Virus record (IMG/VR): IMGVR_UViG_3300027608_000014
Location: 32,001-96,000 of that record
DNA: 64,000 bases
From: a virus
Direction: 5' to 3' (one strand)
The position numbers and the translations under genes are program-made. The notes under the pieces were generated by a model. The model was not told where the DNA came from and searched no databases. It worked only from the letters and a program-made list of their open reading frames with translations. Below, in pieces: positions 9,330-48,997 of the stretch; within the stretch, counting starts at the first letter, position 1; each line of letters begins with the position of its first letter.

Positions 9330-10802
9330 ATGGTAATTATTGGATCAGCAGGTAACTTAGTTATCCCAAGTGGAAGGCTGGTACCCAAGGGTGGTGGCAG
9401 TGGAATTCCTATCACCTCGTTTTCGGGATCTTTTGTCGTAGGATCTATTCCAACATGCAGGGTCGGAATTCCTATTGAGTTTCTCGGTGACATTCCAGAT
9501 GACGCCACCACCAAACTATACCAGGTTAAGGTGGGCTCTGCGGGCAAAGAGTACGATATTTTTACTGGTTACATCTCAGGACGAGCTGGAAGGATAACTG
9601 GACGATCGATTGAGGCTGGAGTCAGCTTGGTACACCCAGCAAGGGACATGGACACAATGAGACTGTTGGCTCCTGGAATGCACTCTCATGGTAAAATGGA
9701 TTACTCGTATACAACCAAACCAAGTGGTGACGGAAGCAAACCGGGCACGGTTAATAATTGGTACTATAGCGGTAACAGTTCGGCGCCGCTTCCAAAGCAA
9801 ATCATCGATGGAATCATTAAGACGCTGACGTTCAGAAACACTACTACCAACACCCAAGGCCTTGGAGGCGCTAGCAAGACAATAAGTTACGCTCGTACAA
9901 TTGCCCTCCTAGGATCGATCAAGTGTCTAAATGGTGCACTAACAAGGGTTCCTTTTAGGATAGAGCATTCAATCAATACTGCTGTGAACAATGAGGTGGA
10001 GGGGTCATTTCGGACTCAGTCCAGTTTGTGGAATTCTATTGTCAATATTCTTGGTCAATTCGGACTCTACGTAATCTGTGATCACAATGGAGACACACTG
10101 GTGTCAGCTGACGTAACAAACTTTGAGCCACCTGAGAAAAATTATTTTTACTCTAATCAGATTTATAGCATGGATCAGTCCTCGTCCTTTGGCAGAAACG
10201 TCAAAGAAGTTAGACTACTAAATCAAGATCACAGATCGCCAGAGGGTGGGTCGTCTGTCTCGTTGCTGGCCACCTATAGCTACCCAGATCCACCGACCGA
10301 CCCGGATGGTGGAACTGTAGTAATTAATCTGCCGCCATGGCTTAGTCCACTTAATGATGCCACCAGGATATACCCTGGAGGTGGACCTCCTATCCCGATC
10401 TCCCCAACCAACCCATCTCCGAAGCCATCTGGATCCGTTCCCAGGCCGTCTGATGCAGCCGAAGTCAGTCAGATCTACAAGGACTTCGCCCAAGCCACCT
10501 ACAATAATGAGAGGAACAAGTGGAAAAGCATGACGTTCTCTGGTCCACTACTGCCCAATGTAACCCCAGGTACCACTGTCTGGGTTCAACCGTACAGTGG
10601 CGCTATAGCCCTAAGTAAAAAAGAGATTAGAGATGCATCAACATTCTCTGGATACGTATCCTCCGTCATGCATCGTATTGATGTAGGGAGCAAATCTATG
10701 TCCACTACTCTGACCCTTAGGAATGTCAGCAATGTGACATCAGCCCTGAATATTACTTCTCATCCCATTTTTTCAGACGTTAAGGCGTTTGTGTTGGCTT
10801 GA
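9330..10802 (+). CDS. Baseplate hub-like protein (gp27/late control D-like)
   Basis: Pattern IFTGYI...; C-terminal P.VTPG...GYVSSVMHRI...TTLTL typical of hub proteins. Tail context. Confidence 0.5.
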   Translation: MVIIGSAGNLVIPSGRLVPKGGGSGIPITSFSGSFVVGSIPTCRVGIPIEFLGDIPDDATTKLYQVKVGSAGKEYDIFTGYISGRAGRITGRSIEAGVSLVHPARDMDTMRLLAPGMHSHGKMDYSYTTKPSGDGSKPGTVNNWYYSGNSSAPLPKQIIDGIIKTLTFRNTTTNTQGLGGASKTISYARTIALLGSIKCLNGALTRVPFRIEHSINTAVNNEVEGSFRTQSSLWNSIVNILGQFGLYVICDHNGDTLVSADVTNFEPPEKNYFYSNQIYSMDQSSSFGRNVKEVRLLNQDHRSPEGGSSVSLLATYSYPDPPTDPDGGTVVINLPPWLSPLNDATRIYPGGGPPIPISPTNPSPKPSGSVPRPSDAAEVSQIYKDFAQATYNNERNKWKSMTFSGPLLPNVTPGTTVWVQPYSGAIALSKKEIRDASTFSGYVSSVMHRIDVGSKSMSTTLTLRNVSNVTSALNITSHPIFSDVKAFVLA

Positions 10803-31966: not shown

Positions 31967-32032
31967 ATGTCGCAAGACAAAAGTCTTCATCGAGCTGAAC
32001 GTCGAATCAGCGAGTACCTTCTTCGCGGCTAA
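31967..32032 (+). CDS. Possible 21-aa peptide MSQDKSLHRAERRISEYLLRG
   Basis: ATG after an AC-rich leader (CAACAC); too short to verify. Confidence 0.25.
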   Translation: MSQDKSLHRAERRISEYLLRG

Positions 32033-32132
32033 GCGATGATTTCTTTTCTCACCAACATACATCCGTAAGAAGCGGAAGTGTTGGCGTCGTTCCACTCACC
32101 TTTTTTTGTCGTTAGTGCGACGTTAAACATCC

Positions 32133-32216
32133 CGGTGCTTGGGCACTGTTAGCTGGGTTCAATTCCTAGCGAGGTCACTAAGCCCAAGGCGTTCAATCGA
32201 AAGATTGGGAATGATC
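32133..32216 (+). ncRNA. Pistol-like ribozyme 1 (variant with inserted T-loop hairpin)
   Basis: P1 CGGTG/CACTG. Loop CTTGGG pairs perfectly with CCCAAG (32183-88), preceded by CTAAG and followed by GCG. P3 TTCAATC/GATTGGG, junction AA, P2 GGTCA/TGATC. The AAA linker is replaced by a GCTGGG-TTCAATT-CCTAGC hairpin. Confidence 0.55.
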
Positions 32217-32249
32217 CAAACAAACACAGCCCCACAAGGGGAGGCGACG

Positions 32250-32495
32250 ATGGCCGACTCCATCGTTAGGTCAGAACGTGACCTATTCGAAGAAACCCTC
32301 ACTGCAGCCCTCAAGGGCCTGCGCCTCGGCAAGATGGCAAAGGTTCAGGTAATCGAGCTCCCCGAGGAGTTTGCCCTCGTAATTGACCGGAAGCACCTGC
32401 TCCGGTATCGGGGGGTGGGCCCAAAGGCCGTCGCGGAGTTTGTGGAAAACCTGAGCGAGAGATTGGATGGGTGCAAGGTGTTCTTCTCCACCTGA
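32250..32495 (+). CDS. Hypothetical protein (alternative in-frame start at 32211)
   Basis: ATG 32250 has a GGGGAGG Shine-Dalgarno. GC-rich codon usage. Confidence 0.55.
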   Translation: MADSIVRSERDLFEETLTAALKGLRLGKMAKVQVIELPEEFALVIDRKHLLRYRGVGPKAVAEFVENLSERLDGCKVFFST

Positions 32496-32520
32496 CACCA
32501 ACTGAAGGTTCGATCCCTTC

Positions 32521-32586
32521 CGTCGTTCGTGCGACGTTAAACAGCATACTAGGCACGAAGCGTCCACTCACTCGAGTGGGGATATG
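32521..32586 (+). ncRNA. Pistol self-cleaving ribozyme 2
   Basis: CGTCG-TTCGTG-CGACG (P1), TTAAACAG, P2 CATA, CTAGG, pseudoknot CACGAA, GCG, P3 TCCACTC/GAGTGGG, junction GA, P2' TATG. Matches the pistol layout element for element except GA in place of GU at the cut site. Confidence 0.8.
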
Positions 32587-33630
32587 ATCAAAATTATCAC
32601 AGAGACGCAGGCCCTCTTAATGGTCTGCACTCCCGAAGACCGGATTAAAGGTCTTGTCGTAGTTCACAGCGGCGTGTTCCACGCCGACGATGTGTTCTTC
32701 GTCGCCTTCCTCACGCTGGTCAGTCCCAGCATTCAGATCGTCCGGACTCGCAAGAGCGAGATCATTGAGGCGGCGGAGATCGTGGGCGATGTTGGTGGCA
32801 TCTGCGCCATCAATCAAAACCGCTACGACCACCACCAGAAGGGTGGGGCCGGTGCGCGCCTGAACGGAGTGCCCTTTGCGAGCTTCGGCTTGATCTGGTC
32901 GCACACAGGCTGGACGCTGGACCTGATCGGCACCGTGCTCAGGGGCGGCGGTCAGTACAGCGCCATCGCTCGGATAGTCGACGAGTCGCTGGTCCAGGCG
33001 ATCGACGCGTCGGACTGCGGCTTCACGTCGGCCGCCAGCGACCCTTTCGCGGATGCCACTCCGCGCTACTCGCTGAGTATGGCCATCAGCGCGTTCAATC
33101 CGGACTGGTCGGAGGACGACCAGGACTTCGACGCCGCCTTCGCCAGGGCCGTCGAATTCGCACAGATGATTCTCCGTCGAGAGATCATCAGCGCGGCGGG
33201 GCAGGTCGAAGCGACGTTGGTGGTCAAGCAGGCAATCACCGAGCAGACGGACGAGCCGGAGATCTTGATCCTCAATCGGTTCTGCCCTTGGCAGAATACG
33301 GTCCTGCGATGCGCCGACGTGGTGAAGTTCGTTGTCTTCCCTTCGGAGACTGGCGACTGGCGCGTGCAGGCAGTGCCCGTCTACTCTGGCTCGTACGAGA
33401 CCAGGATGTCCCTTCCGGCAACCTGGGCAGGCCTCCGCACGGCGAAACTCGCAGCGGCGGTTCGCGCCAGTGGCGGATCGATCGGGGACGACGAGGCGGC
33501 GTTCTGCCACGACAAGCTCTTCATCGGTGGGGCGACCACCTTTGAAGGAGCCATGCAGATGGCTCGCGCCGCCCTGCCAAAGGTTGCTGAGGTCAGCATC
33601 GATCTCACGGATCTCCGTGAGCGGGCCTAG
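32584..33630 (+). CDS. MYG1 family (DHH-like) 3'-5' RNA exonuclease
   Basis: HSGVFHADD, IVRTR, DVGG, YDHHQ, ASFGLIW, IDASD, FNP, R..LP..WAGL, FCH..FIG motifs. Confidence 0.9.
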   Translation: MIKIITETQALLMVCTPEDRIKGLVVVHSGVFHADDVFFVAFLTLVSPSIQIVRTRKSEIIEAAEIVGDVGGICAINQNRYDHHQKGGAGARLNGVPFASFGLIWSHTGWTLDLIGTVLRGGGQYSAIARIVDESLVQAIDASDCGFTSAASDPFADATPRYSLSMAISAFNPDWSEDDQDFDAAFARAVEFAQMILRREIISAAGQVEATLVVKQAITEQTDEPEILILNRFCPWQNTVLRCADVVKFVVFPSETGDWRVQAVPVYSGSYETRMSLPATWAGLRTAKLAAAVRASGGSIGDDEAAFCHDKLFIGGATTFEGAMQMARAALPKVAEVSIDLTDLRERA

Positions 33631-33687
33631 CAAGCCCGTGCAGTTATCTCCCGCCCCGAAAGGGGCGGGACACTTTCCGGGTTATCC

Positions 33688-34311
33688 ATGAACCCAGTAA
33701 TAAAATGGAAGTTGCCGAAAGGCATAGAAAGGCACACCATGACGTGTACCTCGTATATCCGGGTTAAGGGCCCCGTGAAAGCCCTCAAAGTCTGCAACTG
33801 GTGCGGCCCAGATGCAGAAGACCCGCAGCCGCAGCAGTTGTTCCTCGTGGCGGGGGAACAGGATTCGTTTGGGACAGAATGGCACGAGGTGTGCCAGGCC
33901 TGCATCGACGCTGGCAACGTCGCCTCCGAGACGGCGCTCGAGGTCCGAATCGCCAAGATGGTGGAGAAGCTCGGCAGTGAGCAGTCCGATACGGACTTCT
34001 ACGTCGCGGCGCTGGGCAGCCGCGACACGGTGGACGAGTGCGCCATCGTTCGGGGAGCGACGAACGCAGCCCATATGTTTGTCCGCTGGGAGGACATCGC
34101 CGCCAACAAGGGCGACTACCTCTACTCAGAGGCGCTCCGCATCGCCACTGACGACGACCGGAGCACCGTCGTCAGGTTCCGGAAGGACCGGGACGAGGAG
34201 GAGCGGCGGTACTGGGCCAAGCAGGATGAGCTGGAGGAGCTGGGGGAGCTGGAGGATCGAGATGCTCAGGATGAGCAGGATGAGCAGGATGAGGAAAGGG
34301 AGGAAGCATGA
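33688..34311 (+). CDS. Hypothetical protein (CxxC motifs, acidic tail)
   Basis: GC-rich ORF with QDE repeats. Confidence 0.6.
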   Translation: MNPVIKWKLPKGIERHTMTCTSYIRVKGPVKALKVCNWCGPDAEDPQPQQLFLVAGEQDSFGTEWHEVCQACIDAGNVASETALEVRIAKMVEKLGSEQSDTDFYVAALGSRDTVDECAIVRGATNAAHMFVRWEDIAANKGDYLYSEALRIATDDDRSTVVRFRKDRDEEERRYWAKQDELEELGELEDRDAQDEQDEQDEEREEA

Positions 34312-34559
34312 GCGCCTCCTACGCAACAGAGGACCTCCGCAAGCTCCTCGTCGCGATCCTCCGCAAGGAGCCGCGACAAGCCAAGATCGCCCTTATGGCG
34401 GTGACCCTCACAGGGGACACCCTCACCATAAAGGGCCAACTGGAAGACTGGATCCACTCCAGCCTCCAGGCCCTCAGCCAGAAGCGAGCTCCACGCCCGC
34501 CCTCGACTGAGCTCAAGAGGATCGCGAAAGCGCTCCTCGACCACCACTTCCCTGGTTAA
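34308..34559 (+). CDS. Hypothetical protein
   Basis: ATGA overlap and GGAGG Shine-Dalgarno. Confidence 0.55.
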   Translation: MSASYATEDLRKLLVAILRKEPRQAKIALMAVTLTGDTLTIKGQLEDWIHSSLQALSQKRAPRPPSTELKRIAKALLDHHFPG

Positions 34560-34574
34560 TAATGGGAAGGTTCG

Positions 34575-34656
34575 GGTCTGCCTTCGGGTGGTCGCCGTTG
34601 TTAGTGATTTATCCTTACGGATACTTCCTACAACGCGACCACACCGAAGGCAGACC
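34575..34656 (+). other. Long imperfect hairpin A (family of three)
   Basis: GGTCTGCCTTCGG...GTGGTCGC.GTTGT...ACAACGCGACCAC.CCGAAGGCAGACC. Confidence 0.8.
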
Positions 34657-34777
34657 AGGAGACATGGCGTGTTGGTTTCATATACCCTTTTTTAGGTATC
34701 AAAGACTTTCGGCACCTTGAGTGTCACGCAGTAGGCCCTCCCTTGGCCTAACCATATGGGATTAGAAAAACGTTACC

Positions 34778-35149
34778 ATGAAAATCATGAACGTCAGTGC
34801 AGTGTTGGTTGCGGTTGTAGGTCTCATGCTTGGTGCATGCGATAAAGACGGTGCGATTAGTACCTCGATTAAGAAAGAGGAGGTCCGACACAAGGAGGCA
34901 ACCTCCGCTGAGAAAGCGCGGCACCTCAAAGAGGTCAGGGACATTAAAAACGCTGAGGCGTGGCAGAGCCTGAAGCAGAAGATGGAAGCTGCCAAGGCCA
35001 CCGTTGCCGCTGATGGCGAGAGCCTGAAACAGAAGATGGAAGCGGCCAAGGCCACCGCCGCCGCTGAGGGCGAGAGCCTGAAACAGAAGATGGAAGCGGC
35101 CAAGGCCAAGGCCTCGCGCTGGAGCTTCACCCCCAGTGCCAACCCGTAA
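34778..35149 (+). CDS. Lipoprotein with 20-aa repeats
   Basis: Signal peptide ending in lipobox LGA-C; three copies of (E/Q)SLKQKMEAAKA (60-bp repeat). Confidence 0.7.
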   Translation: MKIMNVSAVLVAVVGLMLGACDKDGAISTSIKKEEVRHKEATSAEKARHLKEVRDIKNAEAWQSLKQKMEAAKATVAADGESLKQKMEAAKATAAAEGESLKQKMEAAKAKASRWSFTPSANP

Positions 35150-35151
35150 AT

Positions 35152-35313
35152 ATGGACGCCTCACCAAATAACAAGAAGGTCAACCGGATGACGGCCGAAG
35201 CTCTTCGGATCGCTCTCTCCGTCGCCAGTGAAACTGGCAACATCGACGAGAGAGGTCGCCCCATGTCGGCTAACGCTCGCCATCTAATGGCAGCGCTGGC
35301 GGCGAAGAGCTAA
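35152..35313 (+). CDS. Small hypothetical protein (53 aa, not in ORF track)
   Basis: MDASPNNKKVNRMTAEALRIALSVASETGNIDERGRPMSANARHLMAALAAKS, starting 2 nt after the upstream stop. Confidence 0.5.
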   Translation: MDASPNNKKVNRMTAEALRIALSVASETGNIDERGRPMSANARHLMAALAAKS

Positions 35314-35362
35314 GAGGCTCTCCAACAAATATCCAGTGGGCCGGTGCGCCCACTGCACTTTC

Positions 35363-35424
35363 CGTGTAGAGCGCAGCCCTTTTAAGGCTGAGGTTGCTGG
35401 TTCAAATCCAGTCCTACGCGACTA
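35363..35424 (+). tRNA. D-armless tRNA-Lys(UUU)-like RNA
   Basis: Acceptor CGTGTAG/CTACGCG, 4-nt linker AGCG with no D arm, anticodon arm CAGCC-CTTTTAA-GGCTG, T arm GCTGG-TTCAAAT-CCAGT. Ends ACTA rather than ACCA. Confidence 0.65.
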
Positions 35425-35690
35425 TTTATGCAACAGCAAATGTTGTTGCTTCTGGGACTTGGCCCAGAAGTACCGTCCCTGAAACGCAAAGTGCAACCCT
35501 GCGAGCGGATGCGCTCTCTGTTTCAGGAGATGAGGAATGCGGCTGCGAAAGCCTGAGGATCTACTGGGCATGGGAGCCCAGCCCTTTCGGGTGGTTGCGT
35601 TGTTAGTAACTTGTCGCAAGACATTTAACTACACAACGCAATCACTTGGAGGTAGACCGGCAATGAGGCGTGTATACTTACAGATTCCTT
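35425..35690 (+). ncRNA. Unassigned multi-hairpin structured RNA (includes hairpin B, 35586-35650)
   Basis: Several stems (CTTCTGGG/CCCAGAAG, CCTGAAAC/GTTTCAGG, CTGGGC/GCCCAG, an 18-bp stem with a GCAA apical loop) between tRNA genes; no convincing ORF. Confidence 0.5.
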
Positions 35691-35765
35691 TTCTTTACAG
35701 GTCAGCAACCTTTCCCCCAAAACCATCAGAAATCTAGAATCTCAAATTCTTCTGATTACTAATTT

Positions 35766-35842
35766 GCAGCCATAGCTCAGTCGGATAGAGCAGAAAACTT
35801 CTAATTTTCAGGTCGTTGGTTCGATCCCAACTGGCTGCACCA
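35766..35842 (+). tRNA. tRNA-Arg(UCU)
   Basis: Canonical cloverleaf GCAGCCA...TGGCTGC A CCA with anticodon loop CTTCTAA. Confidence 0.95.
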
Positions 35843-36020
35843 TTCTCTCAGTTCAGAGTTACGCCCTGAATGAAGCCCTCTCCGCAAGGGGCCATAAATC
35901 GTGAGATATCGCCTAAGCCCGATACTCCACGTCACTTTCGTCACTTAACGGTGACCCAAACAAAACAACAACCAAAACAACCAGTGCAACTAAAACAAAA
36001 ACAAGAAGTAAAAAGTAAGC

Positions 36021-39400: not shown

Positions 39401-39478
39401 CACGTAACAGCTCAACCTGGTAGAGCACCTGTATGCAGAACAGGACGTTGCTGGTTCAAATCCAGTCCTACGTGACCA
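39401..39478 (+). tRNA. Atypical tRNA with GCA anticodon (Cys-like)
   Basis: D arm GCTC/GAGC, anticodon arm CCTGT-ATGCAGA-ACAGG, T arm and encoded CCA. Non-canonical: C8, A32, A73 discriminator, A7-C mismatch, extra base between T and acceptor stems. Confidence 0.65.
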
Positions 39479-40117: not shown

Positions 40118-40536
40118 GGGCCATAAAGGATTCGACTAATAGGTCAGATCTACAGCCACATGCAGAGGGACGACTTAGTTACCTCTTTAAACTCCTGAGA
40201 CAAAACTCAAACGCTAACGCGAATGACTCCGGCAACGGAAATGTGATCCAGGGCTACTTCGGTAGCTCTTCGGTCCGCACTCCGATGCTCGCTGCGGCCT
40301 AGTCCGCATCCGTCCTCTCTTCGACACCTGCTAAGGGAGAAGGACGACACCAGCAGGACGATGGTGGTGGATCCACTTTGGTACTGATCATACAGCAATG
40401 CTGCAGATCTGCGACTCGACCCACCTGGCAGCACATTTCCAGGGGACCTGTTAAGAGCGAATAATGAGATAAGCATGTAAACGCGGTAGAGTAAGACAGA
40501 TTAGGACCGGGCTCTCAGATGCCCGATGGTCCACCA
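40118..40536 (+). ncRNA. ssrA: tmRNA
   Basis: GGGCCAT/ATGGTCC acceptor with G3-U70, GGATTCGAC 5' motif and ACCA end. Tag ORF 40213-40302 reads ANANDSGNGNVIQGYFGSSSVRTPMLAAA. Confidence 0.9.
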
Positions 40537-43059: not shown

Positions 43060-46000
43060 ATGTTCAAATCAAAAACCAAATCTAGCAAGCCCAAGGGACT
43101 AACCTTTACCAGAGAGTTTTCTTCATCACAAGTGTCTCCATATGAAGAACTTGAGTGGGAACGGCGCACCGCCGAGATCACCGATGACTCTGGCAAAACA
43201 ATTTTTAAACAGGAGAATGTCGAGGTTCCAAAGTCGTGGAGTGCACTGGCCACAAAGATTGCAGTCTCGAAGTATTTCTACGGCGACATCTCGAAGGGAA
43301 CTGACCCGAAAAAAGGTGGCCGTGAGAATTCAGTCAAACAGATGATTGGTCGAGTCACTGAGACCATGGCAGAGTGGGGCCGAAAAGACGAATACTTCGA
43401 CAGTGCCGAAAGCGCAGCAGCTTTCGAGGACGACCTCACCTGGCTGTGCCTTAATCAGTATGGCGCATTCAACTCTCCGGTGTGGTTCAACGTAGGTCTG
43501 TTTCAGAATTACGGGGTCAATGGGGGACAAGAAGGCAACTGGGTGTACAATCATAAGACCAAGGAGGCTGAGATCTGGAAGAACCAGTATGAGTATCCAC
43601 AAGGTAGCGCTTGCTTCATTCTTTCTGTTGACGATACCATGGAATCAATCATGGATCTTGCTAGAGCAGAAGCTATGCTCTTCAAATACGGCAGTGGAGC
43701 TGGCACTGATCTATCCACACTCCGCTCGACTCGCGAGAGGCTCAGTGGTGGTGGTAAGCCTTCAGGCCCGATGAGCTTCCTAAAGATCTACGATCAAGTT
43801 GCTGGGACGGTCAAGAGCGGTGGAAAGACTCGTAGGGCCGCAAAGATGAACACGCTCAAGGACTGGCACCCTGACATTGAGGAGTTCATCGAGGCCAAAT
43901 CTAAGGAAGAGAAAAAAGCCTGGGCCCTTATTGAGCAAGGTTACGATCCATCGTTCAACGGTGAGGCCTATGGGTCGGTGATGTACCAGAATGAAAATCT
44001 ATCTGTAAGAGTTAGTGATCGATTCATCGAAGACGCCCTTTGCGGTCGTCCGTGGCAAACACACAACGTGAAAGACGGAAAGGTCTGTGAGACCAAAGAT
44101 GCAAAAACTTTGCTTCGTAAGATCGCTGAGGGAACACATCTCTGTGGCGATCCTGGAATGCAGTTCGACAACACGATCCACAAGTGGCACACCTGCAAGG
44201 GCACAGATCGGCAGCACTCCACAAATCCGTGCTCCGAATATCTCTTCCTGAATAACACAGCGTGTAACCTCGCCTCCCTTAATCTGCTCAAGTTCAAGAA
44301 GTCAGATGGCTCTTTTGATGCGCTTTTGTTCCAAAAGGCCTGCCGAATCTTCATCACCGCCCAGGAAATTCTGGTCGATCGAGCTTCATATCCTACGAAG
44401 GCAATCGCAGAGAACTCTCACATCTTTAGGACTCTAGGTCTTGGCTTTGCCAACTTGGGTGCCCTGATTATGAGCTATGGATACGGCTATGATAGCGATG
44501 AAGGTCGCAATCTTGCTGGATTGATTACCTCTCTGATGACGGGAACCGCTTACGAACAGTCAGCGCTGATTGCCTGGGCAAAGAGTCCGTTTGATGGCTA
44601 TAATGATGCTAGATGCTCTGGTGTCCCAGTGCCGCTTAAGCCCAGCAATCGTGCATCTATGCTGGAGGTTATTGATCTGCACCGCACTCATGCCCATCAA
44701 CTGTCTGAGTCCGTTAAGTCAATCGGCAGCCTTTCAGAGCTAGCTGTTGCGTCTACTAGCGCTTGGAAGTCAGCCTACGTCCATGGAGCGTCATTTGGTT
44801 ACCGCAACGCCCAGGTCACCGTCCTTGCGCCCACCGGCACGATCGGCTTCCTCATGGATTGCGATACCACCGGTATTGAGCCCGACATCGCGCTGGTGAA
44901 GTACAAGTTGCTGGCTGGCGGCGGTATGCTGAAGATCGTCAATCAGACGATCGGATCGGCGCTGAATACACTGGGTTACGACGACGAGCAGATCGCTCGG
45001 ATCATTGCCCACATCGAGAGATACGATACGATCGAGAACGTGCAGGGCGAAACTCCGTTGGGACTCGGCACCGGTGCGCATTATAGTGTTAATCCCTCGG
45101 ATCGCTCCAAGTCGACCTTCCATTCCGGTCTCAATCCTGAGCACCTGCCAGTGTTCGACTGCGCTTTCAAGGCGGCCAGCGGCACCAGAAGTCTGCACTA
45201 CATGGGGCATCTTAAGATGATGGCTGCCTGTCAGCCCTTCCTGAGTGGTGCCATCTCGAAGACGGTCAATCTTCCGGAGGCTGCTACTGTAGAAGATATT
45301 ATTAACACCTACGTTGAGGGCTGGAAGTTAGGACTCAAAGCGATTGCCATCTATCGAGACGGCAGTAAGCGATCAGCTCCTCTGAGTACAAAGAGCTCGA
45401 AGACAGCAGGGGTCGTAGAAGTTATGACTGACACCATCGACTTATCCGAGATTGAGGATATGAGATCATACATCGCCAGTCTTGAATTGGCTCATGGAGC
45501 CCCAGTCAAAAAGAGACTCCCTGATACTCGATCAGCGATCAACCACAAGTTCGAGGTCGGTGGACATAAGGGTTACATTAGCGTCGGTCTCTTCGAGAGC
45601 GGCAAGCCTGGTGAAATCTTTATTTCTATGGCCAAAGAAGGATCAACCATCGGTGGACTCATGGATACTGTTGCCACGCTGACCAGCATCTCGCTGCAGT
45701 ATGGTGTGCCGCTGGAGTCTCTGGTCAGCATGTTTGCGTATCAGCGATTCGAGCCGTCAGGCTTCACCAGGAATCCTGATGTCCGCAATGCAACTTCGAT
45801 CATCGACTACGTCTTCCGCTGGCTCGGGTGCCTCTTTATTCCAGGATACAAGCAGTCTCCAGAAACTGATACTCCTGCCCTAAAGAACGAGCTCCCGCAA
45901 TTAGTGGAGTTGCTGGCTCCCCTACCGGCAGCTGAAGTAAGTCCTGTAAGACGATCTATTTACCTATCTGACCCTTGCAACAAATGCGGATCGTCAAAGG

Positions 46001-46062
46001 TGGTAAGAAGTGGTGTCTGCGGAGTGTGCACCGAATGCGGAGAATCAGCTGGATGTAGCTAA
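43060..46062 (+). CDS. nrdJ: Class II (adenosylcobalamin-dependent) ribonucleotide reductase
   Basis: AFNSPVWFN, SACFI, KSGGKTRRAAKM, NPCSE...ACNLASLN, APTGT, SGAISKTVN, YRDGSK, and a C-terminal TSCPD/Zn-ribbon domain. Confidence 0.95.
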   Translation: MFKSKTKSSKPKGLTFTREFSSSQVSPYEELEWERRTAEITDDSGKTIFKQENVEVPKSWSALATKIAVSKYFYGDISKGTDPKKGGRENSVKQMIGRVTETMAEWGRKDEYFDSAESAAAFEDDLTWLCLNQYGAFNSPVWFNVGLFQNYGVNGGQEGNWVYNHKTKEAEIWKNQYEYPQGSACFILSVDDTMESIMDLARAEAMLFKYGSGAGTDLSTLRSTRERLSGGGKPSGPMSFLKIYDQVAGTVKSGGKTRRAAKMNTLKDWHPDIEEFIEAKSKEEKKAWALIEQGYDPSFNGEAYGSVMYQNENLSVRVSDRFIEDALCGRPWQTHNVKDGKVCETKDAKTLLRKIAEGTHLCGDPGMQFDNTIHKWHTCKGTDRQHSTNPCSEYLFLNNTACNLASLNLLKFKKSDGSFDALLFQKACRIFITAQEILVDRASYPTKAIAENSHIFRTLGLGFANLGALIMSYGYGYDSDEGRNLAGLITSLMTGTAYEQSALIAWAKSPFDGYNDARCSGVPVPLKPSNRASMLEVIDLHRTHAHQLSESVKSIGSLSELAVASTSAWKSAYVHGASFGYRNAQVTVLAPTGTIGFLMDCDTTGIEPDIALVKYKLLAGGGMLKIVNQTIGSALNTLGYDDEQIARIIAHIERYDTIENVQGETPLGLGTGAHYSVNPSDRSKSTFHSGLNPEHLPVFDCAFKAASGTRSLHYMGHLKMMAACQPFLSGAISKTVNLPEAATVEDIINTYVEGWKLGLKAIAIYRDGSKRSAPLSTKSSKTAGVVEVMTDTIDLSEIEDMRSYIASLELAHGAPVKKRLPDTRSAINHKFEVGGHKGYISVGLFESGKPGEIFISMAKEGSTIGGLMDTVATLTSISLQYGVPLESLVSMFAYQRFEPSGFTRNPDVRNATSIIDYVFRWLGCLFIPGYKQSPETDTPALKNELPQLVELLAPLPAAEVSPVRRSIYLSDPCNKCGSSKVVRSGVCGVCTECGESAGCS

Positions 46063-47863: not shown

Positions 47864-48997
47864 ATGAAACCAGAAAGCTTGACTCTATATTACAAAGATG
47901 GATCTTCTGATAAGGTATACTTTGCCACTCTAGAAAAACAGATGGCCGTTGGGACCCACAGTTGGGTGGTCAACTTTGCCTACGGTCGTCGCGGGTCCAC
48001 TATGACCACAGGGACAAAGACCCAGGCCCCAGTTGACTACACTGCTGCCAAGAAGATCTACGACAAGGCGATCAAAGACAAGACCGCCAAGGGGTATACA
48101 GTCGGAAAGGATGGAACTCCGTTCCAGTTCACCGACAAGGAATCCAGAGACTCCGGACTGCACCCACAGCTTCTTAACTCTATCGATGACGCCAGACTGG
48201 CTGAACTGATGAAGGACGATGAGTGGTGCATGCAGGAGAAGATGGACGGTCGTCGATGCATGATCCGAAAGACTGGTGATGTGGTTGAGGGCGTCAATCG
48301 CCTGGGCCTCACCATTGGACTGCCTCAGCCGATTGTCGATGATGCCAAGAAGATCGATCGTGACTTCGTCATTGACGGAGAAACCATTGGTGACGAATTC
48401 TATGTCTTCGACGCCATTGAGATCGATGGATTAAGTGTAAAAGACTTCCCGTACTTCTCGAGACGAACCGGACTAGGCAACCTCTTGGAGATCGACACAG
48501 AGAGTCGACTCAATCATATCATCATGGTTGAAAGCGCCACTAGCACCAAATCCAAGAAAATAATGTTTGAACTTCTCAGCAACAAGAACAAAGAGGGTGT
48601 GGTCTTTAAGCGACTGGACTCTCTGTACGTCTCTGGACGACCATCAAGTGGCGGCAACCAGCTGAAGTATAAGTTCGTTGAGGACGCCTCCTGTGTGGTG
48701 ATCAGAGTGAATGACAAGCGCAGCGTGGCGCTTGGAGTATTTGAGTCAGAGGAAGATATTCCTAAAATGAAACTCCTGGATGTGGGCAACACAACTATTC
48801 CTCCTAACCACGATATCCCCAAAGTTGGAGACGTGGTGTCAGTTAGGTATCTCTATGCCTACCGAGGCGGTAGTCTCTATCAGCCTGTTTATCAGGGAGC
48901 TAGAGACGATCAGACCATCGCTGAGTGTAGCATTAAACAACTCAAATACAGACCAGAACAACAAGAACATGTTAACCCGCTTCTGGCTAAAGATTAA
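47864..48997 (+). CDS. WGR-domain ATP-dependent DNA ligase
   Basis: N-terminal WGR-like domain (SDKVY...YGRRG...K..KGY), motif I QEKMDGRR, IDGE, FD, EGVVFK, LKYK, and an OB fold ending P.Y.G.RDD. Confidence 0.85.
   Translation: MKPESLTLYYKDGSSDKVYFATLEKQMAVGTHSWVVNFAYGRRGSTMTTGTKTQAPVDYTAAKKIYDKAIKDKTAKGYTVGKDGTPFQFTDKESRDSGLHPQLLNSIDDARLAELMKDDEWCMQEKMDGRRCMIRKTGDVVEGVNRLGLTIGLPQPIVDDAKKIDRDFVIDGETIGDEFYVFDAIEIDGLSVKDFPYFSRRTGLGNLLEIDTESRLNHIIMVESATSTKSKKIMFELLSNKNKEGVVFKRLDSLYVSGRPSSGGNQLKYKFVEDASCVVIRVNDKRSVALGVFESEEDIPKMKLLDVGNTTIPPNHDIPKVGDVVSVRYLYAYRGGSLYQPVYQGARDDQTIAECSIKQLKYRPEQQEHVNPLLAKD

Follow-up and report, generated by a model that had tools for sequence, protein, structure and literature searches.

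A phage pistol ribozyme with the probable start codon of a MYG1-family gene in its P2 helix

What might a self-cleaving ribozyme do for a phage when the start codon of the next gene is part of one of its own helices? This question is raised by a locus in a 148,872-bp IMG/VR virus contig (about 75% complete), of which we analyzed a 64,000-nt stretch, bases 32001 to 96000 of the record, referred to here as the window; coordinates are window positions unless another locus is named. The ribozyme is assigned to the pistol class, which is said to go back to Weinberg in 2015, and it lies at 32521 to 32586, within the 88-nt gap between a small ORF and a co-directional gene of the MYG1 family. What pistols, like most self-cleaving ribozymes carried by phages, do biologically has been a standing question since 2011 to 2015.

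The window has long, tightly packed genes that are nearly all on one strand, with tail-fibre and baseplate families in its first 26 kb and ribonucleotide reductase further downstream. A blastn search of a 6-kb region against 50,697 GenBank phages returned tRNA-sized matches only and no close cultured phage, tblastn of MYG1 gave one weak match (32% identity), and a search of IMG/VR viral contigs, a set from which near-identical records may be missing, found none with the same MYG1. Parts of the stretch are present in 20 public freshwater or lake runs, metagenomes from 16 studies. The ribonucleotide reductase large subunit (43060 to 46062) is 62 to 66% identical to proteins of Verrucomicrobiota, which account for all 80 best genome hits (mostly Chthoniobacterales, and also Verrucomicrobiales), a similarity that makes a verrucomicrobial host likely. 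Shine-Dalgarno (SD)-like motifs are absent from 113 of the 142 contig ORFs, and most upstream regions are A/T-rich; the small ORF at 32250, with its GGGGAGG, is among a handful of exceptions. The segment from 32001 to 36000, which spans the small ORF, MYG1, and the next genes, is a GC-rich island (0.55 to 0.59, against about 0.48 elsewhere), and its composition suggests a mobile cassette acquired from another genome. Also in the window are a phage tmRNA, which scores 66 bits with Rfam, a single tRNA-Arg(UCU), and two incomplete tRNA-like matches without acceptor or D-arm parts; these sites lie at 40118 to 40536, 35355 to 35412, 35766 to 35842, and 39409 to 39466, and ARAGORN calls the tRNA-Arg only.

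The first-pass annotation had described a complete pistol fold at 32521 to 32586, and a cmscan search bears this out: the segment matches Rfam family RF02679 (Pistol) on the + strand over the full length of the model (positions 1 to 68 of 68) with 49.2 bits, 15 bits above the gathering score of 34.5, with E values of 6e-6 for the window and 3.3e-9 for the 149-kb contig. It is the sole Pistol match above the cutoff on the whole contig. Every part of the fold is present on the + strand, and the coordinates first given for them are all correct by both the sequence and the Rfam alignment. P1 is a 5-bp helix (CGUCG/CGACG, 32521 to 32525 and 32532 to 32536) that closes a hairpin of 32521 to 32536, and its loop UUCGUG (32526 to 32531) pairs with CACGAA (32554 to 32559) in a 6-bp pseudoknot, all Watson-Crick. 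In the Rfam alignment, P1 is followed by the P1-P2 linker UUAAACAG (32537 to 32544), with the conserved AAA at 32539 to 32541, and P2 is a 4-bp helix of CAUA (32545 to 32548) and UAUG (32583 to 32586). Between the 5' strand of P2 and the 3' strand of the pseudoknot lies CUAGG (32549 to 32553, the AGG being 32551 to 32553); directly after the pseudoknot strand comes the conserved GCG (32560 to 32562), whose G32560 we take to be the counterpart of the family's general-base guanine, as in the env25 pistol structure. P3 pairs UCCACUC (32563 to 32569) with GAGUGGG (32574 to 32580) in 7 bp including a closing U-G, around the loop ACUC, and is followed by the 2-nt P3-P2 junction, G32581 A32582. These assignments come from the Rfam alignment and direct reading of the sequence, and for P3 also from a descriptor parse.

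The nucleotides conserved among pistols are all present, namely, the AAA of the linker, A-R-G before the pseudoknot strand, GCG, and the G 5' of the cut. For comparison, we assembled 112 other unique phage pistols, 81 of them parsable. The purine position 32552, here G, is G in 57 and A in 55 of the 112, and the junctions of the 81 are GT (66), GA (6), AT (4), and GC (4), such that the GA seen here, in place of GU, is a minority form. The pseudoknot covaries across 21 aligned phage pistols including this one, with four pairs changed on both sides; among close relatives the ribozyme sequence does not vary, and that clade therefore offers no covariation of its own. Pistols are cut inside the 2-nt P3-P2 junction, the length of which is strict and the GU sequence of which is only modestly conserved, at about 10 per min at physiological Mg2+ (Harris 2015, PMC4604425). 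The junction G32581/A32582 and a cut inside it, as first annotated, agree with both the model alignment and that study. On homology, the cut mapped for the family would correspond to the bond between these two bases, such that the 3' product would start 5'-OH-AUAUG. By every sequence and structure criterion examined, the element is a pistol ribozyme; it shares the fold and conserved bases of the class, and its phage association is typical (RF02679; PMC4604425). It differs from the class in that a UAUG 3' strand of P2 carries a start codon with the cut predicted 2 nt before the AUG, in the GA junction, and in the invariant T-loop hairpin and further hairpin that precede P1.

The downstream gene (32584 to 33630, +) encodes a 348-aa protein of the MYG1 family, a putative DHH-type 3'-5' RNA exonuclease that matches Pfam PF03690 (MYG1_exonuc) at an E value of 3.3e-67 over profile positions 2 to 318 of 318, with the domain starting at residue 25. 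Across 18 MYG1 homologues the motifs H-x-G-x-x-H-x-D-D, DVG, and DHH are invariant (H28, G30, H33, D35, D36, D69, and D82-H83-H84). Eukaryotic MYG1 is a 3'-5' RNA exonuclease (PMC6582341), and the phage protein is putatively an RNA exonuclease too.

The first-pass annotation had placed the MYG1 start codon in the TATG of the P2 3' strand, and the sequence, the Rfam alignment, and the ORF list concur: the ATG at 32584 to 32586 sits within UAUG and opens the 348-aa ORF, and the frame has a stop at 32503 to 32505 and then no ATG, GTG, or TTG until 32584. However, the public gene call P0001 is 336 aa and starts at ATG 32620 (codon 13), and the Pfam domain begins only at residue 25, so the start at 32584 needed testing. 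The N-terminal peptide MI(K/N)II.E.QAL is common to homologues at 54 to 74% identity, and residues 2 to 12 are kept as protein in relatives down to 54%. Between the window and relative L010, codons 2 to 11 have five differences, four at third positions and three synonymous; in closer relatives, third positions make up 6 of the 12 variable sites in codons 2 to 12. Codon 13 is TTG (Leu) in relatives L003, L006, and L010. L009, which is without the ribozyme, has an A-rich leader running directly into ATG-AGC and then the same INIISEQ peptide. In an AlphaFold model built with 11 sequences (mean pLDDT, 81.8), residues 1 to 10 have a mean of 85 and form a short strand and helix. The comparative evidence and the confidently modeled N terminus thus uphold 32584 as the true start, and we consider it very probable that translation begins at the AUG inside P2.

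Such a layout departs from what other phage pistols do. For 45 of the 112, an ORF of 50 aa or more begins with an ATG no farther than 100 nt from the cut, and in 28 of these the ATG follows the cut by 20 to 50 nt, often behind a visible AGGAG; the distance is 6 to 19 nt in two and within 5 nt in one, L035. This L035 pistol (9873 to 9960) is unrelated; it has a GA junction, and its ATG, which opens a 77-aa ORF, coincides with the predicted cut, but another ATG 21 nt further on makes the true start ambiguous. A conventional leader is therefore what pistols normally leave behind, and a start codon within P2, here 2 nt after the predicted cut, is rare.

The overlap of ribozyme and start codon recurs in relatives. 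In five of these (L003, L004, L005, L006, and L007), MYG1 is only 60 to 74% identical, yet exactly the same 66-nt pistol is present, ending at gene base +3 with the same overlap of UAUG and start codon. The identity covers 113 of 113 positions from 32476 to 32588 in L003, L005, L006, and L007, with a 2-nt insertion in a linker in L003 as the sole change inside the block, whereas the flanks are 67 to 75% (36 nt before) and 71 to 87% identical (92 nt after). Invariance ends 2 nt past P2, and variation resumes 3 nt after the ribozyme end. A divergent strain in run X4 has the same pattern, with no differences in hairpin A (32476 to 32493, +; AGGUG and CACCU around an 8-nt loop), which forms the 5' edge of the block, overlaps the last codons of the small ORF, and is free of substitutions in L003, L005, L006, and L007. 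Between hairpin A and the ribozyme is an equally invariant T-loop-like hairpin, GAAGG UUCGAUC CCUUC (32504 to 32520, +), that directly abuts P1. Given that sequence differences reappear right at the ribozyme 3' end, selection on the RNA unit would explain this identity better than random exchange of a recombination tract; a recent tract of that kind retains some probability as the cause.

T-loop-like hairpins of the GG-UUCGAUC-CC type accompany pistols elsewhere too, as in L010 (about 2562 to 2578) and in L018 (- strand, just upstream of 6500), where 10 nt separate the hairpin from a downstream pistol that shares the P1 and pseudoknot of the window ribozyme. The hairpin precedes P1 in the canonical form and in L018 and is located inside the P1-P2 linker in a variant form of the ribozyme described below. 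ARAGORN finds no tRNA at these sites, and the hairpin may be a peripheral ribozyme domain or a half-tRNA relic.

In two more distant relatives, another version of the pistol occupies this position. Upstream of MYG1 in L010 (54% identity) and L008 (63%), the P1, pseudoknot, P3, and linker all differ from those in the window; the pseudoknot is CUUGGG/CCCAAG, and the T-loop hairpin is inserted in the P1-P2 linker. P2 is again CAUA/UAUG, however, and the AUG within it, which the predicted cut precedes by 2 nt, is the earliest ATG that the ORF offers. Rfam misses this variant, and it was detected by a custom structural descriptor, which gave no other matches in the other MYG1 loci for which it returned a report, some 250 kb in all. 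For an AUG in P2, L010 provides clean evidence; L008 is weaker as an independent case, as a GTG preceded by AGGAG, 39 nt downstream, is an alternative start.

Orthologues that lack a ribozyme have ordinary leaders. That of L009 is A-rich, as noted above, and those of L306 and L307 consist of a terminator hairpin and then AAGGA, a few nucleotides before the start. In L306 and L307, a shared upstream motif (ACCTGG..GTCATAAGGATTTG) is located right after the terminator-like hairpin (280 to 315 in L306 and 865 to 900 in L307), and from its sequence it is possibly a promoter and ribosome-binding unit. Among 80 metagenomic MYG1 loci at 46% identity or less, the descriptor found none with an upstream pistol. 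IMG/VR scans with 14-mers for the variant pseudoknot core yielded 177 stretches, and a filter for pistol features left no further MYG1-linked or variant-type pistol among them; L190 may contain an unrelated pistol-like site. A scan for the head of the window ribozyme (P1 and pseudoknot) found only five other contigs, none with MYG1, and the Rfam pistol model had no match in 156 Verrucomicrobiota genomes, a sample searched with strict filters that does not imply absence from the phylum.

A pistol of the variant type is also present in the window itself, at 32133 to 32215 (+), upstream of the small ORF, where the descriptor scan identifies the CUUGGG/CCCAAG pseudoknot and the T-loop hairpin in the P1-P2 linker. 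Its P2 is GUCA/UGAU, and it is conserved in L003 and L006. Rfam gives only a partial 17.9-bit match nearby (32107 to 32143), below threshold, so its status rests on the descriptor and on conservation. We note that a P1-like hairpin and GUUAAACAU (32109 to 32131) precede this pistol, and that the hairpin loop UUAGUG complements CACUAA at 32175 to 32180, immediately 5' of the strand that the variant uses for its own pseudoknot, so that the segment 32107 to 32215 could form either of two pseudoknots. The two pistols bracket the small ORF on the same strand. This ORF (32250 to 32495, +) has no Pfam match; from its sequence, a start at ATG 32250, preceded by GGGGAGG, appears more likely than one at ATG 32211, and in relatives the gene caller picked the second ATG. 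A CCCC-loop-GGGG hairpin in its leader (32226 to 32243), in which only the loop varies in relatives (ACAA to GAAA), partly covers GGGGAGG and so may control translation of the small ORF.

How could a pistol act in this position? We tentatively favor, at somewhat less than even confidence, a reading in which an active pistol is cut to give a MYG1 mRNA with a 2-nt leader, with the ribozyme replacing the normal leader and translation proceeding from the 5'-proximal AUG. The RNA would fold during transcription, locking the MYG1 AUG in the 4-bp P2 beside P3 and the pseudoknot, and the ribozyme would then cut between G32581 and A32582. The upstream RNA would retain the whole ribozyme and end in a 2',3'-cyclic phosphate; if cut, the small-ORF mRNA would thus terminate in the intact ribozyme. 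P2, weak in that it has three A-U pairs and a single G-C pair, would melt and release the MYG1 message, 5'-OH-AU-AUG-AUC-AAA..., that is, 5'-OH-AUAUGAUCAAAAUUAUC..., in which the 2-nt leader is followed by an A/U-rich stretch predicted to be unstructured; in the minimum free energy fold, the first 20 nt of the predicted 3' product are unpaired. Ribosomes of a low-SD host could then initiate at the 5'-proximal AUG in its open A/U-rich context, and the ribozyme would in this way set the 5' end of the MYG1 mRNA. The sequences establish the anatomy of the ribozyme, where the start codon lies, how both are conserved, and how rare the layout is; that the RNA cleaves, that its 3' product comes free, and that ribosomes translate the shortened message are inferred. 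A stricter version, in which the AUG stays locked in P2 until the cut and a host ribosome initiates directly on the 5'-OH, 2-nt-leader message, such that cleavage is obligatory for activation, seems to us possible though doubtful. The first-pass annotation had spoken of a purine-rich leader removed by the cut; read against the fold, this leader is simply the 3' strand of P3, and the phage hardly uses SD sequences, so losing it is not losing a ribosome-binding site. The first-pass proposal that the ribozyme may directly set MYG1 expression is thus supported in part, for the fold, the homologous cut site, and the start codon, and any effect on expression could go in either direction.

The chemistry of the 5' end is the main difficulty for this favored reading. 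According to a review of leaderless mRNAs (PMC9031893, citing Giliberti 2012 and Krishnan 2010), leaderless translation in Escherichia coli requires a 5' phosphate and becomes weaker the farther the start codon lies from the 5' end, and therefore 5'-OH-AU-AUG could be a poor template rather than a good one. Ribozyme chemistry yields a 5'-OH, not a 5' phosphate; the AUG itself would be near the 5' end, behind a predicted 2-nt leader given a cut at the homologous bond. Repair of the 5'-OH by a phage kinase or RtcB is unsupported, with PF13671, PF01139, and PF01743 absent from the roughly 75%-complete contig. A 377-aa ORF at 47864 to 48997 has a borderline match to RNA_ligase PF09414 (48218 to 48625, 29.7 bits), and it is the only gene of RNA-repair type found on the contig. 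In the sole RNA library (X20, contigs only), short pieces are located upstream of the variant pistol and in MYG1 (32611 to 32646 and 32723 to 32869), and the ribozyme is outside them.

A different role for an active ribozyme is the strongest competitor, although we regard it as unlikely on balance. It would cut a polycistronic RNA and stabilize the upstream 3' end, leaving MYG1 on a 5'-OH, near-leaderless RNA that ribosomes translate poorly; cleavage would then lower MYG1 synthesis, not enable it, and provide only a low dose of a potentially harmful exonuclease. Ribozymes flanking single phage-operon genes are known; Perreault 2011 (PMC3088659) described them between co-directional phage genes, where they are thought to cut long transcripts into gene-length mRNAs, and the second pistol upstream of the small ORF resembles this arrangement, in that two pistols bracket one gene. 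Neither the kinase nor RtcB was found on the contig, and both the 5'-OH and added 5' bases lower leaderless translation in E. coli (PMC9031893). However, the AUG is hidden in P2 of the uncut RNA too, and MYG1 would then be poorly made from both forms, whereas the gene is under clear purifying selection with its catalytic motifs invariant. Moreover, mere punctuation does not need a 2-nt register, and this register is fixed through three versions of the ribozyme, while typical pistols leave leaders of 20 to 50 nt.

Two further explanations are less likely than this one. The element may not cleave, or its cleavage may be irrelevant, with the block kept as a protein site or as a tRNA-like signal centered on the T-loop, or as a recent recombination tract. 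The identity does cover loops, linkers, and 45 nt upstream, beyond the normal demands of a ribozyme; the T-loop hairpin abuts P1; and the GC-rich island (0.59 against about 0.48) suggests a mobile cassette. Yet all conserved pistol positions and helices are intact at 15 bits over the family cutoff, in every lineage the identity stops 2 nt past the ribozyme 3' end, as expected from selection on an RNA unit more than from a random exchange tract, and in distant relatives a pistol of another version, also complete, holds this position, such that we consider this explanation improbable. Least probable of all is that MYG1 truly starts at ATG 32620, with an ordinary 38-nt leader after the cut (within the 20 to 50 nt usual for other pistols) and an incidental ATG in P2, as the start of P0001 and the domain boundary at residue 25 might suggest, given the TTG at codon 13 in three relatives, the bias of changes in codons 2 to 12 toward third positions, the retention of residues 2 to 12 at 54 to 74% identity even where an A-rich leader directly precedes them (L009), and the confident N-terminal model; the first-pass annotation had named a downstream start as a possible refutation, and we judge it unlikely.

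The nearest precedents share individual parts of the favored, near-leaderless reading. In haloviruses HF1 and HF2, the helicase start codon follows a hammerhead ribozyme by 13 nt (PMC3088659), and the predicted cut here is similarly close to a start codon; in contrast to HF1/HF2 and the prophage cases, the start codon is within a ribozyme helix, the leader would be 2 nt, and the ribozyme is a pistol, and in contrast to HF1/HF2 the host is bacterial, as judged from the ribonucleotide reductase, and the downstream gene encodes a putative RNA exonuclease. Bacterial leaderless mRNAs (PMC9031893) resemble the predicted MYG1 message in having an AUG essentially at the 5' end and no Shine-Dalgarno sequence, but known ones are made by transcription starts and carry 5' phosphates, whereas this one would be made by self-cleavage and begin with a 5'-OH and two extra bases, both unfavorable in E. 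coli. A preprint on fungal and plant RNA viruses reports that translation initiation requires, or is induced by, self-cleavage in the 5' untranslated region (bioRxiv 10.1101/2024.05.16.594327); those cases involve hammerhead, HDV, and twister ribozymes and cap-independent eukaryotic initiation, whereas here a DNA phage, a pistol, and a start codon inside the ribozyme are involved. The literature searched contains no paper that connects natural leaderless mRNAs of bacteria or phages with self-cleaving ribozymes, whether pistols or other classes.

What gives the locus its interest is that the predicted cut is held exactly 2 nt from a conserved start through complete turnover of the rest of the ribozyme, and that close orthologues with ordinary leaders provide a natural comparison of the gene with and without a ribozyme. 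If the near-leaderless reading is true, this would be the first natural ribozyme-made leaderless, or nearly leaderless, mRNA in a bacterial virus, and it would give the pistol class a concrete function. It would also represent a new route to leaderless mRNAs and a compact natural part for synthetic biology, and it would cast doubt on the idea that leaderless initiation is prevented by a 5'-OH in every bacterium.
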